Shown here in pieces: positions 363 to 11,232 of a stretch of 28,569 nt of DNA. This DNA is from a virus. A model generated the notes under the pieces. It did no database searches, had not been told where the DNA came from, and worked only from the letters and a program-made list of their open reading frames with translations. The position numbers and the translations under genes were made by a program. The stretch lies in UHGV virus genome UHGV-0000020. The stretch is one strand, 5' to 3'. How positions within the stretch are numbered: position 1 is the first letter of the stretch; each line of letters begins with the position of its first letter.

Positions 363-391
363 AAAAAAACCTGCCGAAGCAGGTCTTTTTT
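363..391 (-). terminator. Rho-independent terminator downstream of ogr (bidirectional hairpin)
   Basis: A-run, hairpin CCTGC-CGAA-GCAGG (370-383), then T-run; on the minus strand it reads hairpin followed by U-tract immediately after the ogr stop. Confidence 0.7.
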
Positions 392-608
392 ATAGCCACA
401 GTTGATGCTGGGCGTATTTATTCGGATGGGGTGGGGCCGGGTCAATTTCTCCGGGTTTTACAATATATCTTGCCAACGCCTCATGAGTGACAAATGTACA
501 TCCGCAGTTGATGTTTTGACACTGGTGATATCGTTCTTTGGTTTCTGTACTGAGGTAGCGACTTGATCTCGCGTGAGCTGCATCTTGGCATAACGGGCAG
601 TGCATCAT
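390..608 (-). CDS. ogr: Late-gene transcription activator Ogr (zinc-finger)
   Basis: 72 aa from ATG at 608 (MHCPLCQDAAHARSSRY...YHQCQNINCGCTF...), Cys4 motif and length typical of P2 Ogr; GGGGGA Shine-Dalgarno 7 nt upstream. The track ORF starting at 641 is an upstream in-frame extension. Confidence 0.9.
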   Translation of the reverse strand: MMHCPLCQDAAHARSSRYLSTETKERYHQCQNINCGCTFVTHEALARYIVKPGEIDPAPPHPNKYAQHQLWL

Positions 609-685
609 TTTGTTATCCCCCTTTGATAATGTCTGCATCATAGCGCCATGAGTTTCAAATGCAAATCATGATTTGCATTTTCGAG

Positions 686-2333: not shown

Positions 2334-4775
2334 TTAATCGTGCATCATGCTGGCGCGCGCTCTTGCACGCTTCTCGCGGTCATATTTATCTAATGCATCC
2401 TGCAACTGGTTCCCCAACTGGCCTCCCGGCATACCGTTACCCGGTACATTGATTTGATATGTTGGGCGACTCTGGTCGATATAGGTTTTACCGGCAGGCG
2501 CTGTCACCGGCTGATAGGCCTGATACCCCCCATAGGAGCTGGTCGCGGGAATATAGCTGTTGCTGCCAGTGGCCGCGCTTGCTTTCGCCGCCGTCTGGTC
2601 AAGGGTGCTGGATTCTTTATTGATGACGCCGAGCTTTTCGAGTACCCAGTCAATCCCGCTTCGCAGTTTGTTAAAGGCTGTTAACGGGAGCATGAGAGCA
2701 TCAGCCAGCGCCCGGCCAAACTGAACACCAACATTCTGACAACTATTTAATGTGTCCTGAGTCGACTTTACCGGCGCAATCAGATCTTTAAACCACTGCC
2801 AGACACCACGTAATTTATCAATTAGCCCATCAAAGACAGGGGCAAGAGGTGCAAACATTGCGCCCACCGGCGCGAATGCTTCCATAAGCCCCTGCACGAC
2901 ACCTGAGAAAAAGGCGCTTATCGGTTCCCAGTACTTACGAATAAGCAGCGCACCGGTGACGATTGCGGCCACTACGGCAACCACTGGCAAAGAGATCGCA
3001 CCGATAGCCGTGGCGATGGCTCCCCCGGCAACGGTAAAGACGGTACCCAATAAACCAGCCGCCGCAATAATGGCATTAATCCCGGCTATCACCGGCCATG
3101 CGACAAGTCCAATCCCCCCAATTATCCCAATCAGAGCGATAGCGCCCCCGGCAATCAGGCCAATAGTCTGAGCTAAATCTTTATTTCTCTGGATCCAGCC
3201 ATCGAGACGAAGTACATATTTTGTGGCTGTTTGCGTAAGCGACCTTAATGATTCTTCCTGCTGGTCATAAAGGTCAGTTCCGACAGCTTCATAAGCAGAC
3301 TGGAATTCTTTGAAGTCACCGCCAAGGTTATCCTGCATGACCTTAACCAGCTCCTCAGTTTTCCCGTCAGATTCTTTAATCAGTTTTGTCAGGTTATCGA
3401 GCTTCCCGCTTGCCGCTGCGGCCATCAGTACACTCGCCGACGAGCTGGCCTCTTCGCCAAAAATGGCTTTCATGTATTCTGAGCGCTGGCCGGTACCGAG
3501 CTTATTCTTCTCAAAACTCGCCTGCATTTCCTTCAGAATGGAGAAAATCGGTCGCGTGTTCCCTTTGCTATCCATCGTCTTAACGCCGAGCTCTTTGATG
3601 GCGTCATAAGCCTTACCGGAAGGAGCCTGTAAACGGCTTAACACTGCGCGGCTACCGGTACCGGCCATTGACCCGGTGATATTGGCATCATGTAGCGAGC
3701 CAATCATCGCGGCGGTTTCTTCCAGGCTAACACCTGCATTTTTAGCGACCGGCGCGACATAGGTCAGTGAGTCACTGAGACCGGCAAAAGTTGCTTGTGA
3801 TTTATTCATCGTCATCGAGATAACGTCGGCAATATGTGTCGCATTGTCATCTGACAGGCCGAAAGCGGATTTTGTCCCGATAAGTAATTTTGCGTTGTCC
3901 TCCATCGTCTCTTTATTTGCAAGAGACATATTCAGGATGGCGGGTGTCTGCGCGAGAATGCCGTCTTTATCTGCGCCCGATTTTGCAACGATGATTTGTG
4001 CCGCTGCGGCGTCATCTGCTGATGCGGCGGTGTTATCGCCCAGGGTGCGAGCCTGCGATTTTAATGCGATGAGTTCAGGGGATTGTTTTTCAAGCCCCAA
4101 TACAGCCTGAAGCTCAGAATTTTTGAGCGAAAAATCATAACCGGGTTTAAGTACTGCACCACCGGCAACAACTCCTGATGTTGCTGTCGCTACTCCAGCC
4201 ATCCCGACATTACGCGCACCTGCGGCGAGTTTCTGCCCCGACTCATAACGTGATTTAACCGCATTGAGTTTCGCCTGTTGCGTGCTGACGCGCGCCAGTG
4301 CCTCACGCTGGCGGTTGAGCTGTGCGGTCGTCTCGCTAATTGAGTTTTTCAGACGTAATTCATCAGAAGACAGTTTTCGGGTATTAATTCCGGCCTGACC
4401 GAGCTCCTGACGCTGGCGCTGGACGGACAAACGCAGACCGTTATATTTGAGCTGTAAGTCAGCCGCACTTTTTTTCGCAAGCTCCATTGCTCGCGCCTGC
4501 GCGCGGGTTGGGTTTTCCGTGTTTTTAAACTGCACGGCCAGTGCGGCGGCTTCCTGCTTTGCCTTTGCCAGTGACTGACCGGTGACGGCGAGCTGTGCGC
4601 TGGTTTTTCGAAAACCGTCGATTTTTGACGCCTGACCATTCAAATCACGCAAGGTCTGTTGAGAGGTGCGGATATCACCAGACAGCGACTTGCTCGCTGT
4701 CTGGATTGCTTTGAATGGTCGGGTCGCCTGGTCAACAGCTTTCAGCAACACTTCGAGTTTGAGGTTATTGCTCAT
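2334..4775 (-). CDS. T: Tail tape measure protein T
   Basis: 813 aa; coiled-coil-rich N-terminal half, Gly/Ala/Ile-rich hydrophobic segment, located directly downstream of E/E' as in P2. Confidence 0.9.
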   Translation of the reverse strand: MSNNLKLEVLLKAVDQATRPFKAIQTASKSLSGDIRTSQQTLRDLNGQASKIDGFRKTSAQLAVTGQSLAKAKQEAAALAVQFKNTENPTRAQARAMELAKKSAADLQLKYNGLRLSVQRQRQELGQAGINTRKLSSDELRLKNSISETTAQLNRQREALARVSTQQAKLNAVKSRYESGQKLAAGARNVGMAGVATATSGVVAGGAVLKPGYDFSLKNSELQAVLGLEKQSPELIALKSQARTLGDNTAASADDAAAAQIIVAKSGADKDGILAQTPAILNMSLANKETMEDNAKLLIGTKSAFGLSDDNATHIADVISMTMNKSQATFAGLSDSLTYVAPVAKNAGVSLEETAAMIGSLHDANITGSMAGTGSRAVLSRLQAPSGKAYDAIKELGVKTMDSKGNTRPIFSILKEMQASFEKNKLGTGQRSEYMKAIFGEEASSSASVLMAAAASGKLDNLTKLIKESDGKTEELVKVMQDNLGGDFKEFQSAYEAVGTDLYDQQEESLRSLTQTATKYVLRLDGWIQRNKDLAQTIGLIAGGAIALIGIIGGIGLVAWPVIAGINAIIAAAGLLGTVFTVAGGAIATAIGAISLPVVAVVAAIVTGALLIRKYWEPISAFFSGVVQGLMEAFAPVGAMFAPLAPVFDGLIDKLRGVWQWFKDLIAPVKSTQDTLNSCQNVGVQFGRALADALMLPLTAFNKLRSGIDWVLEKLGVINKESSTLDQTAAKASAATGSNSYIPATSSYGGYQAYQPVTAPAGKTYIDQSRPTYQINVPGNGMPGGQLGNQLQDALDKYDREKRARARASMMHD

Positions 4776-5201
4776 TCGTGTTTCCGCTTCGCTGTAGCGC
4801 CTTTTCGCGCCAGTTGATGAGCTCGGTCAGGCTCATGGGATATAAATCTGATGGCGACCAGTGGAAAATCACCGCTATGTCAGCCATCAGGTCATCGACC
4901 GATAGTTTGTCTGGGAAGTCTAAGCCGCCGAATTCGGTGACAAAAAACCAATCACCTTACCGGCGAGTTCAACCATATCCGGCAGCTCCATCGCGGCGCA
5001 TTCCTGCGGGGTCAGCGGCGGGATTGTCATTCGCGGCAGCACTTTAATCAGCGCATCAACGTCAGAGTTAGCGACAGCCGCCAGCCCTACGCCGCGAAGG
5101 GTGCCCGCAGTGGGTTTTAACAGCGTAATTTCAGTAATGACCTGTTCGCCACGCTTGATAGGAGTATTCAGGGTGACGGTGTTTTCGTTGGTTTTTTCCA
5201 T
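4765..5201 (-). CDS. E+E': Tail assembly chaperone E+E' (-1 programmed frameshift product)
   Basis: Minus-strand slippery heptamer T-TTT-TTG at 4941-4947 inside E; the -1 frame stays open for about 59 codons to TAA at 4765-4767, overlapping the T start. Same architecture as P2 E/E'. Confidence 0.75.
4920..5201 (-). CDS. E: Tail assembly chaperone E
   Basis: 93 aa ORF upstream of T ending ...GFLSPNSAA-stop; contains the slippery heptamer used for the E+E' frameshift. Confidence 0.85.
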   Translation of the reverse strand: MEKTNENTVTLNTPIKRGEQVITEITLLKPTAGTLRGVGLAAVANSDVDALIKVLPRMTIPPLTPQECAAMELPDMVELAGKVIGFLSPNSAA

Positions 5202-5263
5202 GATATTTTCTCTTCTTAATCAGTATTCAGGGTTCCCGGCCAGCATTGCTGACCGGGCAGCAA

Positions 5264-5782
5264 TTACAGACCGATATTCTGTCGGTGTGCTTCCAGCATG
5301 TCGGTACCGTTAACCTTTTCGACGAGGTTCACTGTGTCGATTTCCACCAGTTCCGAGCCGTTCATCGTCAGCTTGAAATAGGTGCATGCCAGCGAGATTT
5401 TCGACTCGGTGTCTTCGCCCTGTTTGGCTTCGCCGAGATCGATTTCCTTCTGACGGCCACGAAGGACAACTTCGACCGGGATAGTCTCGCCGGTGTCATC
5501 ACGCTGGTAAGAGCCAGCGAAGCGCAACGGTACAGATGCGGTACCTGTTGCAGCGTACAGAGACCAGAGCGCGTCATCCGGGAAGCCACCGAGCGAGATT
5601 TCAGCCGACAGCGCGTCGTCATCGAGGCCGAGGTCAACTGGCGCGGAGCCGTTCATCCCGCCGCCGCGATAGTTTTCGAGCTTGCGGGTCAGTTTCGGCA
5701 GCGTGACGGACTGCACGACACCGAGATAACTCACACCGTCGACAAACAGGTTCATGAGTTTAAGCTTGCGCGGTAATGCCAT
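5264..5782 (-). CDS. FII: Tail tube protein FII
   Basis: 172 aa, MALPRKLKLMNLFVDGVSYLG... typical of P2 FII; directly downstream of FI. Confidence 0.9.
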   Translation of the reverse strand: MALPRKLKLMNLFVDGVSYLGVVQSVTLPKLTRKLENYRGGGMNGSAPVDLGLDDDALSAEISLGGFPDDALWSLYAATGTASVPLRFAGSYQRDDTGETIPVEVVLRGRQKEIDLGEAKQGEDTESKISLACTYFKLTMNGSELVEIDTVNLVEKVNGTDMLEAHRQNIGL

Positions 5783-5794
5783 TATTCAGGCTCC

Positions 5795-6985
5795 TTATTT
5801 GCTGTTGACGGAAGAGACCAGATTCGCCAGATATTTATCTGTGATGCGCTGGCGTAAGGTCAGGTTTTCGAGCGGCGGTACCGGCGTGTAGTCGTAATCG
5901 ATAAACAGTTTTCCGGCTTTCAGCGTCTCCTGAGTATTCGCCTCTTCATCAAACCAGCAGGTCGCATCAATGATGTATCCACCGTTTTTCAGTTCGCGGA
6001 ATTTGGCGTTGATACCGTCGATGATGTCGCGAATCAGTGTCGCGGTGACGGGCTTATCGACCGCCCACATATGACCTTCAGCCATCGTGTCAGCGATGAT
6101 TTGCGCGGTGCGGGTGTAGTTCTCAAACTGAAAGAGCGGGTCGTCGGAGCAATTACGGTTACCCCAAAAACGGAAGCCATCAGCACGAATCAACGTGGTG
6201 ACACCGGCCTCGTTCAGCAGGTCAGCATCGGTACCGGATTCCTGCAAATCCCAGAAGACCGACGCACTGATACCCGTCACCTCATTGACGCCGACGTTAG
6301 ACAGGGTTTTATGCCAGCCGGTGTCGTTGTCGATTTTGGCACGCAGACCCAGCGCAACAGCGGTCGCGTAGGTTGTCGTGGTGGCGCTGGCCGTGGTATC
6401 CCATCCGAGGAAATCAGGCCAGATGATCATGAGCTCACGGGCGCTGAAGTTTTCACGGTACGCGATAACGTCAGAAATGGTTTTACAGCCCCATGCGCTG
6501 ACGTAAGCAAAAGCACGCAGCTTTTGCGCGGTCGAGGCAAGCGCGGTCGCGACTTCCTGCGTATCGAGACCCGGCACGCCGAGAATGCGCGGCTTAACGC
6601 CGGTAACGGCTTTCGCGGTTAACAGTGCTTTGAGGCCGGTGTATTTACCGTTCTCATCCGTAGTGCCGATGATGTTGGAAATGGTCTGCGCCTGCGCGGC
6701 TTCCTCATCATCACCGCTGCCCTCTTCGACACGCACGACAACAACGACCGGCTTCGACTGGTTGGCGATAGCCTGTAAGGATTTTTTCAGGGTGCCTTTG
6801 GTACCGGCTTTCGCAATGGCGCTTTGTGGGTTCGTAATCAGTACCGGCTCATTAAGCGGGAATGCTTCGGCGTCAGCATCGCTGGCCGTACAGACCATAC
6901 CGACGACGGCGGTCGATACTGTTGAGATTGTGCGGGTACCGTCGTTAATCTCGACGACCTGCACGCCGTGATGATAATCACTCAT
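5795..6985 (-). CDS. FI: Contractile tail sheath protein FI
   Basis: 396 aa, MSDYHHGVQVVEINDGTRTISTV... sheath N-terminus; synteny FI-FII-E-T. Confidence 0.92.
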   Translation of the reverse strand: MSDYHHGVQVVEINDGTRTISTVSTAVVGMVCTASDADAEAFPLNEPVLITNPQSAIAKAGTKGTLKKSLQAIANQSKPVVVVVRVEEGSGDDEEAAQAQTISNIIGTTDENGKYTGLKALLTAKAVTGVKPRILGVPGLDTQEVATALASTAQKLRAFAYVSAWGCKTISDVIAYRENFSARELMIIWPDFLGWDTTASATTTTYATAVALGLRAKIDNDTGWHKTLSNVGVNEVTGISASVFWDLQESGTDADLLNEAGVTTLIRADGFRFWGNRNCSDDPLFQFENYTRTAQIIADTMAEGHMWAVDKPVTATLIRDIIDGINAKFRELKNGGYIIDATCWFDEEANTQETLKAGKLFIDYDYTPVPPLENLTLRQRITDKYLANLVSSVNSK

Positions 6986-7049
6986 CCGTTTTACTCCGTT
7001 GGTTGGGGTGAGTGATATTTTCGGGTTTACACCGGCGGGGGGCTATTTA

Positions 7050-7301
7050 TCAGGGTTTTACTGTCTGTGACACAACGAGAGATTGAGCCGGATATCGCTT
7101 ATAGATAGTTTGTTCTGATATGTCATAAATACGGGCAAGCTCCGCGCGCGGATGACCGTTTTTAAGTAGGCGACCAATTTGCTCCCATTGTTCAGGGCTT
7201 AGTTTTGGCCGTCGCCCACCGATGCGCCCCTGAGCACGTATTATCTCGATGCGCTGGAAGCGGTGGACACCTCCAGCGCGCCGGATATCAACTGGCCTGA
7301 G
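7050..7301 (-). pseudogene. Remnant of a Hin/Gin/Cin-type serine DNA invertase (C-terminal HTH domain only)
   Basis: Minus-strand frame open without a start codon reads ...FQRIEIIRAQGRIGGRRPKLSPEQWEQIGRLLKNGHPRAELARIYDISEQTIYKRYPAQSL..., resembling the C-terminal GRIGGRPPKL...HTH region of tail-fibre invertases; the N-terminal catalytic domain is absent and the fragment abuts the tail fibre assembly gene stop. Confidence 0.6.
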
Positions 7302-7695
7302 TCACCGGAGGAATTGGCCATTCCGGGGCTGCGGTATCAACTCTCATCAGTAGCACCCGGTATTTTTTCCATTCTGCCAGCACGACGGTTTCTTCTTCCG
7401 TTGCAATATCTGCATCAACAGAATCTTGTCGCCATGCTATTTCAGAATCTGCAATAGCGCGTAGGGCTGCTCTTTTGTCTTCATTAGCAGCAATTATTTC
7501 TTCTTGCGTTGGTGCTGGTATATCAATCCATAAAGGAAGTCCATCATCACCAGCTACACGGCACTTACCGGATGGGGGAGACTCGGAATATTCGTTAAAA
7601 ACAGCCTGCTCAATTTCGATAACATCAGACGGCATGTCAGAATCATTAAAACCTAAAATATAAAACCCATTATTACCAGGACTGTAAAAATACAT
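7288..7695 (-). CDS. G: Tail fibre assembly chaperone
   Basis: ATG at 7695, 2 nt after the H stop; C-terminus ...EWKKYRVLLMRVDTAAPEWPIPP matches the conserved Tfa C-terminal motif. The track ORF start at 7746 lies inside H. Confidence 0.8.
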   Translation of the reverse strand: MYFYSPGNNGFYILGFNDSDMPSDVIEIEQAVFNEYSESPPSGKCRVAGDDGLPLWIDIPAPTQEEIIAANEDKRAALRAIADSEIAWRQDSVDADIATEEETVVLAEWKKYRVLLMRVDTAAPEWPIPPVTQAS

Positions 7696-7696
7696 A

Positions 7697-8671
7697 TTAA
7701 TACCCCACCACATAAACCAGGCAAGATTCTCTTGTTGGAGTGCCATTTCTAACCTTTGTTGAGGTTAGAGTCCGAACGTCGTAGCACTCACCCCACCATG
7801 TTACCCCAGTACTTCCGCCTACGGTTGAAGCTGTTAGCTCTCCACAGAAAACAGCAACAACCTTATTAGGAAATGCCACTGGATAGTTAGCAACGGCAAC
7901 CCCCGTAGCGTCAGCCTCAGCAGAATTGAACCACTGTTCGATTAACCCTGAGGGATTTTTTTGCACAAGATATGAGCCTGTTTTAATTGAATAGAAGGAG
8001 CTCATATCAGGAATCTGGTTTGCGCCCGTTCCGACATTCCTTTTCGCTGCATCTCCTAAATCAAGGTTTTCGTGAGCTTTTGACACCAGTCCGGCGTCGG
8101 CAATTTCTTTTAAGGCGTTAGCGATTAACGGGTACTGGTTATGCGGGTTGGCTTCGGCCAGATGCTTTTTCATCAGGTCATCGGCATAACCCTTAACCTC
8201 GATAACTTTGTCATCAACATATTTACGGGTCGCCAGCACGACTGACGGGTCGATTTTTAGCGTGATGGCCGACGTGCTCGATACCACCAGAATCATTCGA
8301 ATGGTTTGCGTGCGACCGCTTCCCTCAGCCAGCAGGGGCTTGTAGGTTTCCGGGCAGTTGGCAACAGCTATCAGAATGCCGTTGTCGTCAAACAATCCGA
8401 TTTCACGGATGAAAAAACCACCCTCATTTTCAGGGATGATTTGCTCAGCAATAATCTGACCAGCGTCGTTAGCGTCAACATTAAGAGAGTTAATCGCCGC
8501 AATGCGCGTCTGATTAATGAGTTTCGTTTGAGCCGGGTCAGGAACTGGCAGTGTGCCGTTCCCGTCCCCCACGGCCATTTGGGTAATATTCAGTTTAGTG
8601 CCGAGTGCGGTCGCATTTGCCAGGAGCGCCGCGCCCTGATTTGTCAAAGTGGCAAAGTATTTTGTCGTCAT
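7697..8671 (-). CDS. H: Tail fibre protein H (short form, 324 aa)
   Basis: N-terminus MTTKYFATLTNQGAALLANATALGTKLNITQMAVGDGNGTLPVPDP...IAVANCPETYKPLLAEGSG matches the conserved P2 gpH baseplate-attachment domain; located between I and G. Confidence 0.85.
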   Translation of the reverse strand: MTTKYFATLTNQGAALLANATALGTKLNITQMAVGDGNGTLPVPDPAQTKLINQTRIAAINSLNVDANDAGQIIAEQIIPENEGGFFIREIGLFDDNGILIAVANCPETYKPLLAEGSGRTQTIRMILVVSSTSAITLKIDPSVVLATRKYVDDKVIEVKGYADDLMKKHLAEANPHNQYPLIANALKEIADAGLVSKAHENLDLGDAAKRNVGTGANQIPDMSSFYSIKTGSYLVQKNPSGLIEQWFNSAEADATGVAVANYPVAFPNKVVAVFCGELTASTVGGSTGVTWWGECYDVRTLTSTKVRNGTPTRESCLVYVVGY

Positions 8672-9279
8672 GCGCTTACTCGCAGGTTATCAATTAAATG
8701 AATGGCCGAAGCCGGGTACAACGTCCCACCCACCACGATTTCCTCGGCGGTGTAGGGGTAAACAGTCAACAGGTCGCCGTCATAGCAGCCCGCGCCAACA
8801 TATGCGGGGCCGCTTGTGCTCAGGCTGATCGCTAGGCCGGTCAGGTGGCGGCTTGCCGGTTTTGCTCCTTCAATCAGGCGCTCCAGCTCGATAAACATTT
8901 CATCGGTGATGCCGGTATCGAGGACGCCGACAACCAGCCGGAAAGTACCGGGCTCCTCGTTGAGCTCCCACCACTCTTTCACCTCAATCAGATAGCCGAG
9001 CGGCTCCACCACTCGCCGCAATGCGCTGATGGTGCCTTTGTGCTGATGGACGTAAAACGATGAGGCGATAACGTTTCGTTTAGTGGCTTCCGGCCAGTTC
9101 TCATCCCACCGGTCAACAGACAGTGCCCACGCCAGATAGGGCAACAGCTTTACCGGGCAGGTGCGCCAGTTCCACAGCATGCGCAGCGGCACCGGTACGC
9201 GCTCGATATCTGCGGCCGCTTTTGCGGCGGCGACTTCCAGAACCGATGAGCCGACGGGCAACAGCCGGTTATCACTCAT
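8668..9279 (-). CDS. I: Baseplate protein I
   Basis: ATG at 9279 (MSDNRLLPVGSSVLEVAAAKA...WPEATKRNVI...), about 203 aa, overlapping the J stop by 8 nt. The longer track ORF is an upstream extension. Confidence 0.85.
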   Translation of the reverse strand: MSDNRLLPVGSSVLEVAAAKAAADIERVPVPLRMLWNWRTCPVKLLPYLAWALSVDRWDENWPEATKRNVIASSFYVHQHKGTISALRRVVEPLGYLIEVKEWWELNEEPGTFRLVVGVLDTGITDEMFIELERLIEGAKPASRHLTGLAISLSTSGPAYVGAGCYDGDLLTVYPYTAEEIVVGGTLYPASAIHLIDNLRVSA

Positions 9280-10180
9280 CTGTTCCCCCGGCGGTAATGG
9301 TGTATTCAGTACAGAAAGATGCCTGGTATTTACTGAGCACAATGTCAGCCAGTGGCGCGGCCAGTTCGACACGCTGCACACCTTCCACATGCAGCGCGGC
9401 ATAGATTGCCGACTGGCGAATATCACGCCCTAAACGCTGTTGTGAGCTGATATAGGTTTTGAGTTTTTCCTCAGCAGCCAACCGGATGGGCTCGGCTTCG
9501 GGGCCGGGGTAGAAATAGAGTGTGGCGTTAATCTCATAGGGCACGATTTCAGCGCTTTGCACGGTCACACGGTCGCCTACCGGGCGCACCTCTTCAGCGT
9601 TCAGCGCCTTCTCAACAATGGCAAGTAAATCATCCGATGCCGTACCGTCACCCTCGCGGGATAACACTGATATCGTCACACATGCTGGCGTGGGGCTTTC
9701 GACAGAAATATCGGCGACGCGCCCATCGGCGCTGCGGCCATGATATTCATATGCACCAACCGGCCCCGCCACACTCAGCCCCTCAAAAGCCTGTTGTGCG
9801 CGTAGCCGTAAATCTGTATCAGACTCCATTTCTGCGGGTGTTGGTGGAATAGTGCTGTCGTCAGCAGGCGTAATTGTCAGCCGGGCGGTGTTGTTGTTAC
9901 CTGCAATGACATCGAGGTCATTATTTCCCGAATAGGCCAGCGTGACCGCTTTCGCCGCGTCATTCACGCGCTGACGCCAGATAACTTCCCGATAAGCGTT
10001 TTCCTCCAGATATTTCACCAGAGGCTCAGACTCAAGCGCCAGCGTGCGCGCAACGGCGTCCTGCTGGTCTTCCGGGTACAGAGAGACCAGCGTCGCTTTT
10101 CGCTCGGCGAGGATGCTCTCGAAATCCAGCGTCTCCACAACGTCAGGCGCGGGGAGCTGGCTCAGGTCAATGGTTGCCAT
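9272..10180 (-). CDS. J: Baseplate assembly protein J
   Basis: 302 aa between W and I, MATIDLSQLPAPDVVETLDFESILAERKA... typical gpJ N-terminus. Confidence 0.9.
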   Translation of the reverse strand: MATIDLSQLPAPDVVETLDFESILAERKATLVSLYPEDQQDAVARTLALESEPLVKYLEENAYREVIWRQRVNDAAKAVTLAYSGNNDLDVIAGNNNTARLTITPADDSTIPPTPAEMESDTDLRLRAQQAFEGLSVAGPVGAYEYHGRSADGRVADISVESPTPACVTISVLSREGDGTASDDLLAIVEKALNAEEVRPVGDRVTVQSAEIVPYEINATLYFYPGPEAEPIRLAAEEKLKTYISSQQRLGRDIRQSAIYAALHVEGVQRVELAAPLADIVLSKYQASFCTEYTITAGGTDE

Positions 10181-10184
10181 AGAT

Positions 10185-10532
10185 TCAACTCACAGGGATG
10201 GTTAACGAAAGGCTTTCGCCGGTGTCTTTTGTCTCGCCGGTCAGCTCAACAATCATCTGGCCGTTAAACTGGCGTTCGACGGTCAGCGTAGTGATGCTGA
10301 CGCGCGGCTCCCACTTCAGCAGCGCCATATAGCAGGCGCACATAATTTGCAGTTTCAGGGCGTCGGTTTGCGGCTGGTCAATCAGGGAGAAAAGCAGCGA
10401 GCCATAATCGCGACGCATGACCCGCGACCCGACCGGCGTGCGCAAAATATCGCTGACACTTTGCCGGATGTGTTCGGCGTCGGTGATGGCGCGCCCGGTC
10501 TCCCGGTTCATACCGATGTAGCGTGTTGTCAT
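10185..10532 (-). CDS. W: Baseplate wedge protein W (gp25-like)
   Basis: 115 aa, MTTRYIGMNRETGRAITDAEHIRQSVSDILRTPVGSRVMRRDYGS motif of the GPW/gp25 family. Confidence 0.9.
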   Translation of the reverse strand: MTTRYIGMNRETGRAITDAEHIRQSVSDILRTPVGSRVMRRDYGSLLFSLIDQPQTDALKLQIMCACYMALLKWEPRVSITTLTVERQFNGQMIVELTGETKDTGESLSLTIPVS

Positions 10533-11164
10533 ATCGGCGCTCCTGTCTCGCCGCCACTGTCGCCGGGGTGTTTATGGGTATGCAGCACTTTCCCGTTTGA
10601 AGAAAGCGAGCCGCCGGTGTGGGTAATATCTCCTTTCATCGTCCCGCCTTTTTGCACTTCGAGCGTGGAGGTGATCAGCTTGTTGGTGCAGACCACTTCC
10701 GGCGTATCGAGCGTGATACGGGTTTCCGCTTTCACCAGCACGACCGGCACCGTGGCGGTAATGGAATCAGACGCTGTAACGTCGGCGGTTTTAATGCCAC
10801 TCACTGTCAGGTCGCTGGTTTCAGGTTCGTACTCGATAACCGCACCGTCAGGAAAGGTGATATGCAATGCGTCAGCGGAGGCCGACGGTGCCGGGTGGTC
10901 ATCCGAGTAAATACCCGGCAGCACAAACGCCGTATCGAGCTCACCGCCCACGGCCAGAATTAAAACCTGTTCGTCAACGGAAGGAGCCCACCATGTACGC
11001 GAGCGACCGGCGCGATGCGTCAGCCACTGAAGCCAGTCGGTAATAATGCCGCCCGTCTGGACACGACAGCGCCCCGCGTCGAGGTCAGTCTCGACCACGA
11101 CGCCGGTGCGAATCATGTTGCGCAGCAGGCGCGAAAGTTCCTGAAGAGATGCGAGAGTATTCAT
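10529..11164 (-). CDS. V: Baseplate spike / assembly protein V
   Basis: ATG at 11164 (MNTLASLQELSRLLRNMIRTGVVVETDL...), about 211 aa, C-terminal HTHKHPGDSGG motif of gpV. Confidence 0.9.
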   Translation of the reverse strand: MNTLASLQELSRLLRNMIRTGVVVETDLDAGRCRVQTGGIITDWLQWLTHRAGRSRTWWAPSVDEQVLILAVGGELDTAFVLPGIYSDDHPAPSASADALHITFPDGAVIEYEPETSDLTVSGIKTADVTASDSITATVPVVLVKAETRITLDTPEVVCTNKLITSTLEVQKGGTMKGDITHTGGSLSSNGKVLHTHKHPGDSGGETGAPI

Positions 11165-11232
11165 ACAAGAGAGGATGCCGCCCCATGTTCGGAGCGGCAA
11201 TTGATGCGGGTTTTACTGGCGATGACACAACG

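Follow-up and report, generated by a model that had tools for sequence, protein, structure and literature searches.

Scars of a tail-fibre inversion switch, probably locked by a single deletion, in a P2-like phage genome

Described tail-fibre switches and the P2-like setting

The tail-fibre loci of phage Mu (G/Gin), phage P1 (C/Cin), e14 (P/Pin) and P2-like prophages of EPEC share their gene order with the presumed ancestor of the locus described here: a constant fibre part, a 26-bp site, a variable tip, an assembly gene, a convergent second assembly gene, and the invertase. Two P2-like prophages of EPEC E2348/69 invert their fibre loci (PMC4272514). The locus analysed here resembles these Din-family systems in that its remaining HTH_7 tail is 57–75% identical to their invertase tails and its site lies at ...NLGLG... 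codons. In contrast to them, its switch is dead: a single site survives, the alternative tip is gone, and the invertase is reduced to 62 of about 190 codons. The tailocin carotovoricin Er (P2-type; invertase Ein) also resembles the presumed ancestor in that a P2-type tail cluster carries an inverting fibre locus. Only 47% of the P2-type carotovoricin clusters have Ein (PMC13195805), and switch loss is therefore common in P2-type tails. While the carotovoricin study scored presence or absence of genes, the scars reported here are mapped to the nucleotide, and they stem from a phage genome, not from a tailocin. Phage P2 itself (NC_001895) shows the same order V-W-J-I-H-G ... pF-FI-FII-E-T-U-D, and its pF promoter can be aligned, but it has no invertase sequence, carries fun(Z) between G and pF, and has a much longer H.

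The window, a stretch of 28,569 nt from the virus genome UHGV-0000020, belongs to a 44-kb metagenome contig (positions of its features are collected in Table 1). Judging from Pfam families of the called genes, the Ogr homologue and the alignment of pF to annotated P2 features, we assign the window to the late region of a phage or prophage that is P2-like (Peduoviridae). It shows the V-W-J-I-H-G / FI-FII-E-T-U-D order, an Ogr activator and a pF-type promoter, and all genes around the invertase relic lie on the minus strand in a P2-type late cluster. Capsid, terminase, replication and Ogr genes are present, as in a complete phage genome. The mechanical ORF for I (252 aa, including the part 9280-9426) is over-extended, and the likely true start is the ATG at 9279 (203 aa, as called in the relative L035). 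The sheath protein is 93.7% identical to the sheath of E. coli L001 (tblastn). The best E. coli nucleotide identity to the window is about 83–85%, and the window is not E. coli. Identical H and G proteins were found on 5 contigs. A megablast search of phage GenBank records gave no match, and a distant search of these records matched the assembly-gene part only.

Relatives were compared under locus numbers, among them L001 (E. coli EC23-1020, annotated), L002 (Rosenbergiella), L038 (an IMG/VR P2-like phage), L041 (IMGVR_UViG_3300011952_000038) and L037 (IMGVR_UViG_2887663082_000001). Comparison with relatives that retain an invertase, as suggested by the initial annotation of this locus, revealed an intact architecture next to the sheath gene in L001, L002, L038, L039/L040, L042 and L044. 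The order in these relatives is I, Hc, an invertible segment (site, Hv and G forward; G′ and H′v backward; site), invertase, and sheath.

Table 1. Features of the late region in the window (minus-strand genes are read from high to low positions).
Feature	Position	Strand	Remarks
V	10529-11200	-	
W	10185-10532	-	
J	9272-10180	-	
I	ends at 8668	-	
H, intact tail-fibre gene	7697..8671	-	324 aa; Phage_tail_fib N-terminus, Gp53-like_C
Orphan gix/hix-type crossover site	8051..8076	-	26 bp, CTCACGAAAACC TT GATTTAGGAGAT; encodes ...HENLDLGD...
G, intact tail-fibre-assembly gene	7288..7695	-	135 aa; Caudo_TAP E=1.9e-26
Terminator-like hairpin and T-run	7323..7368	+	TATTTTTT; antisense of WKKYRVLLM codons in G
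G′ relic (convergent second tail-fibre-assembly gene)	7242..7313	+	last 24 codons, YLDALEAVDTSSAPDINWPESPEE
Hairpin formed by G′ relic	7242..7287	-	starts one base after the G stop
Deletion junction	7239..7240		...GAGATAAT / A CGT GCT CAG...; left side G′-derived, right side invertase-derived
Invertase relic	7050..7238	-	last 62 codons and TGA stop (7052-7050); equivalent to Gin residues 131-193
G-to-sheath gap			302 nt, between G stop (7288) and sheath ATG (6985)
pF-type late promoter of sheath operon	6986..7080	-	by alignment to annotated P2 activator site and start
Predicted activator-site equivalent	7052-7080		overlaps last 9 relic codons and stop
Tail sheath gene FI	5795..6985	-	first gene downstream of the scar
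Tube gene	5264-5782	-	
E/E′, then tape-measure gene (position is that of the latter)	2334-4775	-	
U and D genes		-	beyond tape-measure gene in cluster order
Ogr homologue	390-641		

An invertase tail joined to the tail of a second assembly gene

According to the initial annotation, only the C-terminal DNA-binding part of a Gin/Hin-type invertase is left at 7050-7301, with neither a start codon nor the catalytic N-terminal domain. A translated search against invertases had been proposed as a check. The minus-strand frame from 7301 to 7053 is open for 83 codons and contains no ATG, GTG or TTG that would give an ORF of at least 30 aa. Its translation matched Pfam HTH_7 (PF02796; E=2.4e-14), residues 128-183 of 193 of the Gin invertase structures 3uj3/4m6f (E=7e-15), and the Hin DNA-binding domain 1hcr (E=4e-8). 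No Pfam match to the Resolvase domain PF00239, with its serine nucleophile and YVRVST motif, was found in the relic frame, and tblastn of the full-length L038 invertase against the window returned residues 132-189 only, at 7238-7065 on the minus strand, and no other invertase homology. These results confirm the claims on domain content, start codon and catalytic domain. In an alignment of invertases (A2), columns 1-131 are empty for the window. The relic consists of the GRIGGRRPK arm and the HTH_7 DNA-binding domain, from R131 of Gin to the end, and is 75% identical to the last 62 residues of the Rosenbergiella invertase, 67% to those of Leminorella, and 55–57% to those of E. coli L001 and L038. 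It is free of stops and frameshifts and keeps all 22 columns (22/22) that are invariant among the aligned invertases.

The recombinational enhancer of Gin and Cin lies in the 5′ part of the invertase gene. In the window the 5′ 390 nt of the gene, the part that would hold the enhancer, are missing. Thus, among the features that define a serine invertase, the C-terminal HTH_7 domain and the GR(I/P)GGR arm are retained, whereas the catalytic domain, a complete ORF with a start, and the enhancer region are absent. The relic also has no promoter, and it is presumably inactive as a protein. A homologue search with the 62-aa relic returned 4 short proteins only, and their contexts were frameshift-split invertases or tiny contigs. 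A frameshift-split invertase was also seen in an Enterobacter-type P2-like prophage (L047, 481-1057; contig of 2x coverage), where a DNA methyltransferase is inserted between the invertase and the sheath gene.

It is only from 7238 (RAQGRIGG...), and not from 7301, that the earlier frame is homologous to invertases. Its upper 21 codons (LRPVDIRRAGGVHRFQRIEII, 7301-7239) correspond to the C-terminus of a tail-fibre-assembly protein in reverse complement, and the opposite plus strand reads YLDALEAVDTSSAPDINWPESPE in this region. These codons are antisense to G′; the junction lies at 7239/7240, and the invertase part comprises 7050-7238. Consequently, the assignment of 7050-7301 to an invertase holds for 7050-7238, but 7240-7301 is the antisense of the G′ 3′ end, and the relic does not begin at the stop codon of G as had been stated: a 49-nt scar of another gene intervenes.

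The identity of this other gene becomes clear from comparison with L038, in which two assembly genes converge and overlap. The C-terminal half of L038 G(B) is similar to G of the window, and L038 G(A) ends with ...LWLDYLDALEAVDTSGAPDINWPESPEA and a stop codon. The G′ relic is identical to residues 125-147 of G(A) at 22 of 23 positions (95.7%, E=5e-9; tblastn, plus strand 7242-7310). A gapless DNA alignment of the minus strand of the window (7419 to 7240) to L038 spans the 3′ end of G(B) and the antisense G(A) tail and stops at 7240, and the tblastn matches for invertase and G′ abut at 7238 and 7242. L038 also has the same spurious antisense ORF as the window (...LRPVNIWCAGGVYGLQRIEII...). In 10/10 relatives (L002, L004, L006, L017, L038-L040, L042-L044) the convergent assembly genes overlap by exactly 29 nt, and this geometry is kept in the window (7288-7316). 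G′ homology ends at 7242 and the stop codon is lost; the position of the former G′ stop (7314-7316) reads TTG in the window and TAG in L038. The plus-strand scar thus shows the ...LDALxxVDTSxAPDIxWP motif of the Caudo_TAP family and the 29-nt overlap, but not the full-length domain of about 130-200 aa.

The two sides of the junction could also be followed in 5,426 E. coli genomes. Positions 6986-7103 matched the 3′ ends of annotated recombinase genes, including that of an EPEC E2348/69 prophage, and positions 7240-7300 matched overlapping "tail fiber assembly protein" gene pairs, with matches starting exactly at 7240. None of the 5,426 genomes had a match spanning the junction, and neither a 24-mer nor a 22-mer from the junction was matched exactly in IMG/VR or JGI metagenomes. 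No microhomology of more than 1-2 nt can be inferred at the junction. The event therefore looks like illegitimate rather than site-specific recombination.

A search for crossover repeats flanking H and G, another check proposed earlier, succeeded in part: one site is present in H, but the partner site is missing. Crossover sites of the relatives fit the consensus TTCTCNNAAACCNNGGTTTNNGAGAA at 15-20 of its 20 specified positions. The window site, CTCACGAAAACCTTGATTTAGGAGAT, fits at 16, as do the sites of the intact relatives L038 and L044. No second site (at least 15/20) exists in the 28.6-kb window, and none arose in 200 shuffled sequences. The orphan site is located at H residue 199, which is the boundary between the constant and the variable part (Hc/Hv), and thus at the same codon position as the sites of L037, L038, L039 and L041. 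It also encodes the conserved ...NLxLG... motif, and this protein constraint helps to preserve it. Of the elements of an invertible segment, the locus thus has the crossover site at the boundary, but neither an inverted second site nor two convergent tip and assembly cassettes. No second fibre tip exists in the window, and the second assembly gene has been reduced to its final 24 codons.

H itself is intact and comprises a constant part (residues 1-198) and a variable cassette (199-324). The variable part is of usual size (126 aa versus 120-165 aa in relatives), while the constant shaft upstream of the crossover site is short (198 aa versus 269-345 aa). It lacks the units of about 70 aa (APKxSPTFTGTPKAP...LDTLKELAxALGNDP) of which relatives carry one or two, and this points to a separate deletion in H, in frame and between repeats. 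At about residues 180-200, ...PHNQYP runs straight into an LKEIADAG-type segment. The earlier suggestion that loss of the switch would explain both the single G and the short H consequently applies to G, where the 24-codon G′ tail is the scar of the second assembly gene, but fails for H, as its shortness stems from the shaft. The H stop (7699-7697) is separated by one base from the G start. An ORF of 152 aa called for G from 7746 is an over-extension into H, and the ATG at 7695 is the likely start.

Reconstruction of the deletion and alternative explanations

The invertase tail, the G′ tail and the orphan site are three independent scars, and together they support the loss of a host-range switch. 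An ancestral invertible host-range segment locked by deletion had been postulated from the beginning, and this postulate is upheld: with high confidence, we conclude that a Din-type tail-fibre switch was locked by one non-homologous deletion. By homology, the ancestor would have had a Din-type (Gin/Cin/Pin/Hin-like) inversion switch at its tail-fibre locus, with the layout Hc, crossover site, Hv(B) and G(B) forward, G(A) and Hv(A) backward, second site, invertase, pF, and sheath. A single deletion of about 1.2 kb, a size estimated from L038 for an ancestor rebuilt from 60–85% identical relatives, would have fused codon 131 of the invertase to the last 24 codons of G′. It would have removed G(A) codons 1 to about 124 (~370 nt), the alternative fibre tip Hv(A) (~350 nt), the crossover site on the right along with the promoter and the enhancer region of the invertase (~70 nt with site and promoter), and invertase codons 1-130 (~390 nt). 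What is found in the window is one G, one orphan site in H, and two tails without start or promoter, of 24 codons from G(A) and of 62 codons from the invertase. With a single site left, and the invertase and the enhancer region gone, Hc-Hv(B) with G(B) is the form in which the fibre is locked. This shows that the Hv(B)-G(B) orientation is frozen.

Such a fossil switch is a known kind of phenomenon, a case of ordinary gene decay, of which the window is an unusually clean example. It illustrates at nucleotide resolution how a host-range switch is lost and which scars to look for, and helps to annotate "HTH domain" or "partial recombinase" fragments beside tail genes. It further predicts that the phage makes one fibre type only.

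In order to judge the age of the deletion, we compared the G′ tail with the functional gene of L038 at 7242-7310 and found 7 synonymous and 1 non-synonymous differences. Because the changes in G′ are almost exclusively synonymous and the invertase tail is stop- and frameshift-free with its invariant residues kept, the deletion is probably recent relative to the divergence from functional homologues. Most of this divergence would have arisen while both genes were under selection, which likewise argues for a recent event. The intact relic frame could, however, reflect selection instead of youth. It might also be that the deletion took place in a donor phage and then arrived by recombination instead of arising in situ. 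No relative that shares >90% nucleotide identity and has kept the segment intact was found.

A comparable case is provided by L041 (P2-like; 4582-5635), which has one crossover site (18/20), one G, a G′ tail, and then pF and sheath. It resembles the window in the single site in H, the single G and the G′ tail scar, but differs in its deletion endpoints and in that no recognisable invertase is left; a candidate 3′ remnant gave weak alignments only. The G′ scar of L041 comprises about 26 codons, including a hairpin, and is followed by a T8 run. L041 represents an independent locking event.

Four other explanations have to be weighed against loss of an ancestral switch. The phage may never have had a working switch, having imported an already scarred Hv-G cassette from a donor, e.g., an L037-like phage. 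The closest Hv-G cassette (85% identical G) is indeed part of a non-P2-type fibre gene in L037, and horizontal movement of tail-fibre cassettes is known (PMC13195805). We nevertheless regard import as unlikely. The P2-type pF and sheath gene follow the 3′ end of the invertase contiguously and collinearly, with 83% nucleotide identity to E. coli L001 across 6900-7084, and convergent G(B)/G(A) pairs exist in the P2-like L038, L039 and L041. Moreover, a deletion is required in either scenario.

The cassette of L037 (3965-6752, on a 96-kb contig) is joined to a non-P2-type fibre N-terminus. Inverted repeats of 62 nt flank the segment, whose invertase (214 aa) is intact and whose G′ (52 aa) is truncated. 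This arrangement points to cassette exchange between unrelated phages.

It is highly improbable that the relic has a function, be it as an HTH protein of its own or as a C-terminal tail added to G by frameshifting. One conceivable task for such a product would be the binding of crossover sites, by which inversion or exchange through invertases supplied in trans would be blocked. The intact frame, the retention of all invariant HTH residues, a GGAGGT sequence at about 7266-7271 and the +1 position of the relic frame relative to G would fit this idea. Yet the frame has no ATG, GTG or TTG before its last stretch of fewer than 30 codons, and the GTG that follows GGAGGT is in another frame, which stops after 12 codons. 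An in-frame TGA at 7304-7302 means that a shift from G would be needed within its last 4 codons, which contain no slippery or prfB-like motif. In addition, the frame opens with 21 codons that are the antisense of another gene. On sequence grounds, we reject both +1 frameshifting from G and the GGAGGT as a source of translation.

Mis-assembly, that is, a chimera of an assembly-gene tail and the invertase gene of another element, has to be considered for a metagenome contig, as tail-fibre loci are repeat-rich and mosaic, but is hardly credible either. Exactly the same 901 nt of the junction region are present in one ENA assembly (k141) and in one Logan assembly, both flanks are collinear with P2-like relatives, the junction does not lie in a repeat, and L041 carries a comparable natural deletion. 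Finally, a misread intact invertase in this interval is refuted by the gap of only 302 nt between G and the sheath gene, the restriction of homology to residues 132-189, and the lack of a Resolvase match.

Promoter and hairpins embedded in the switch genes

The pF-type promoter overlaps the 3′ end of the invertase relic. A -10-like AAAATAT is located at about 7015-7021, with a predicted transcription start at about 7008-7010. In the window as well as in E. coli L001 the activator-site equivalent lies within the last invertase codons, and E. coli P2-like prophages without an annotated invertase match only from 6986 to about 7078. Because pF overlaps the invertase ORF, the extreme 3′ end of this gene is promoter DNA and cannot be lost. 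The overlap accounts for only about 30 of the 189 relic nucleotides. A scan for consensus promoters and terminators between 6900 and 7800 revealed nothing relevant on the gene strand.

On the other side of the junction, the G′ relic forms a hairpin (7287 to 7242) of -29 kcal/mol (z=-4.6), and 0/200 shuffled sequences fold as well. The fold of the whole interval 6986-7300 is not unusual (z=-0.95), and the local hairpin alone stands out. The junction lies 2 nt beyond the foot of the hairpin. An equivalent hairpin follows every convergent assembly gene that we examined (L038, 5424-5469; L041, 5421-5466; and the junctions of L002, L004, L006, L039, L042, L043 and L044). It is the antisense of the ...DA(L/V)xxVDTS(S/T)AP codons of the partner gene. 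In an alignment of 12 phylogenetically related sequences built from coordinates (A4), 79.8% of cells pair, versus 33–48% if the 3′ partners are slid by 1-3 columns. Eight of the 19 pairs have changed on both sides, and the covariation score of these related sequences exceeds that of 500/500 shuffles. One pair is CG in 6 sequences and GC in 5, and the coupled amino acids are A-L...S-A versus A-V...T-A. Selection on the nucleic acid itself appears to maintain the hairpin, and with such strength that the amino acids are forced to covary.

The terminator-like hairpin with T-run on the plus strand within G is missed by the consensus terminator scan due to its loop of more than 8 nt. The same plus-strand hairpin with GGTATTTTTT is present in L038, L039, L041 and L042. 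By its position, it would have ended G′ transcription in the other orientation of the segment. For the antisense-motif hairpin, a role as orientation-independent 3′ terminator or stabiliser for whichever assembly gene is expressed would be conceivable. From both palindromes we infer that, whichever way the segment is oriented, they may terminate or stabilise the late transcript.

On the left, the deletion thus ends 2 nt past a conserved hairpin, and on the right 158 nt separate it from the pF activator site downstream. With two locked examples only, the window and L041, deletion endpoints seem to lie where they are tolerated. This suggests that regulatory elements embedded in switch genes limit switch decay. 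We put forward tentatively, and with more doubt than conviction, that two cis-elements within coding sequence, the assembly-gene hairpin and the activator site of pF, may determine at which points a switch of this type can suffer a deletion. If this is true, fossil tails of G′ and invertase are a predictable, recurrent signature of locked P2-like phages and not random debris.

A sub-threshold match to the Rfam family IS009 (RF02111) was seen on the minus strand at 7328-7444 (43.6 bits versus a gathering score of 117, E=9e-9). It lies entirely within the 3′ half of the G coding sequence, and the IS009 family may have been seeded on conserved ends of prophage assembly genes and not on a free-standing RNA.
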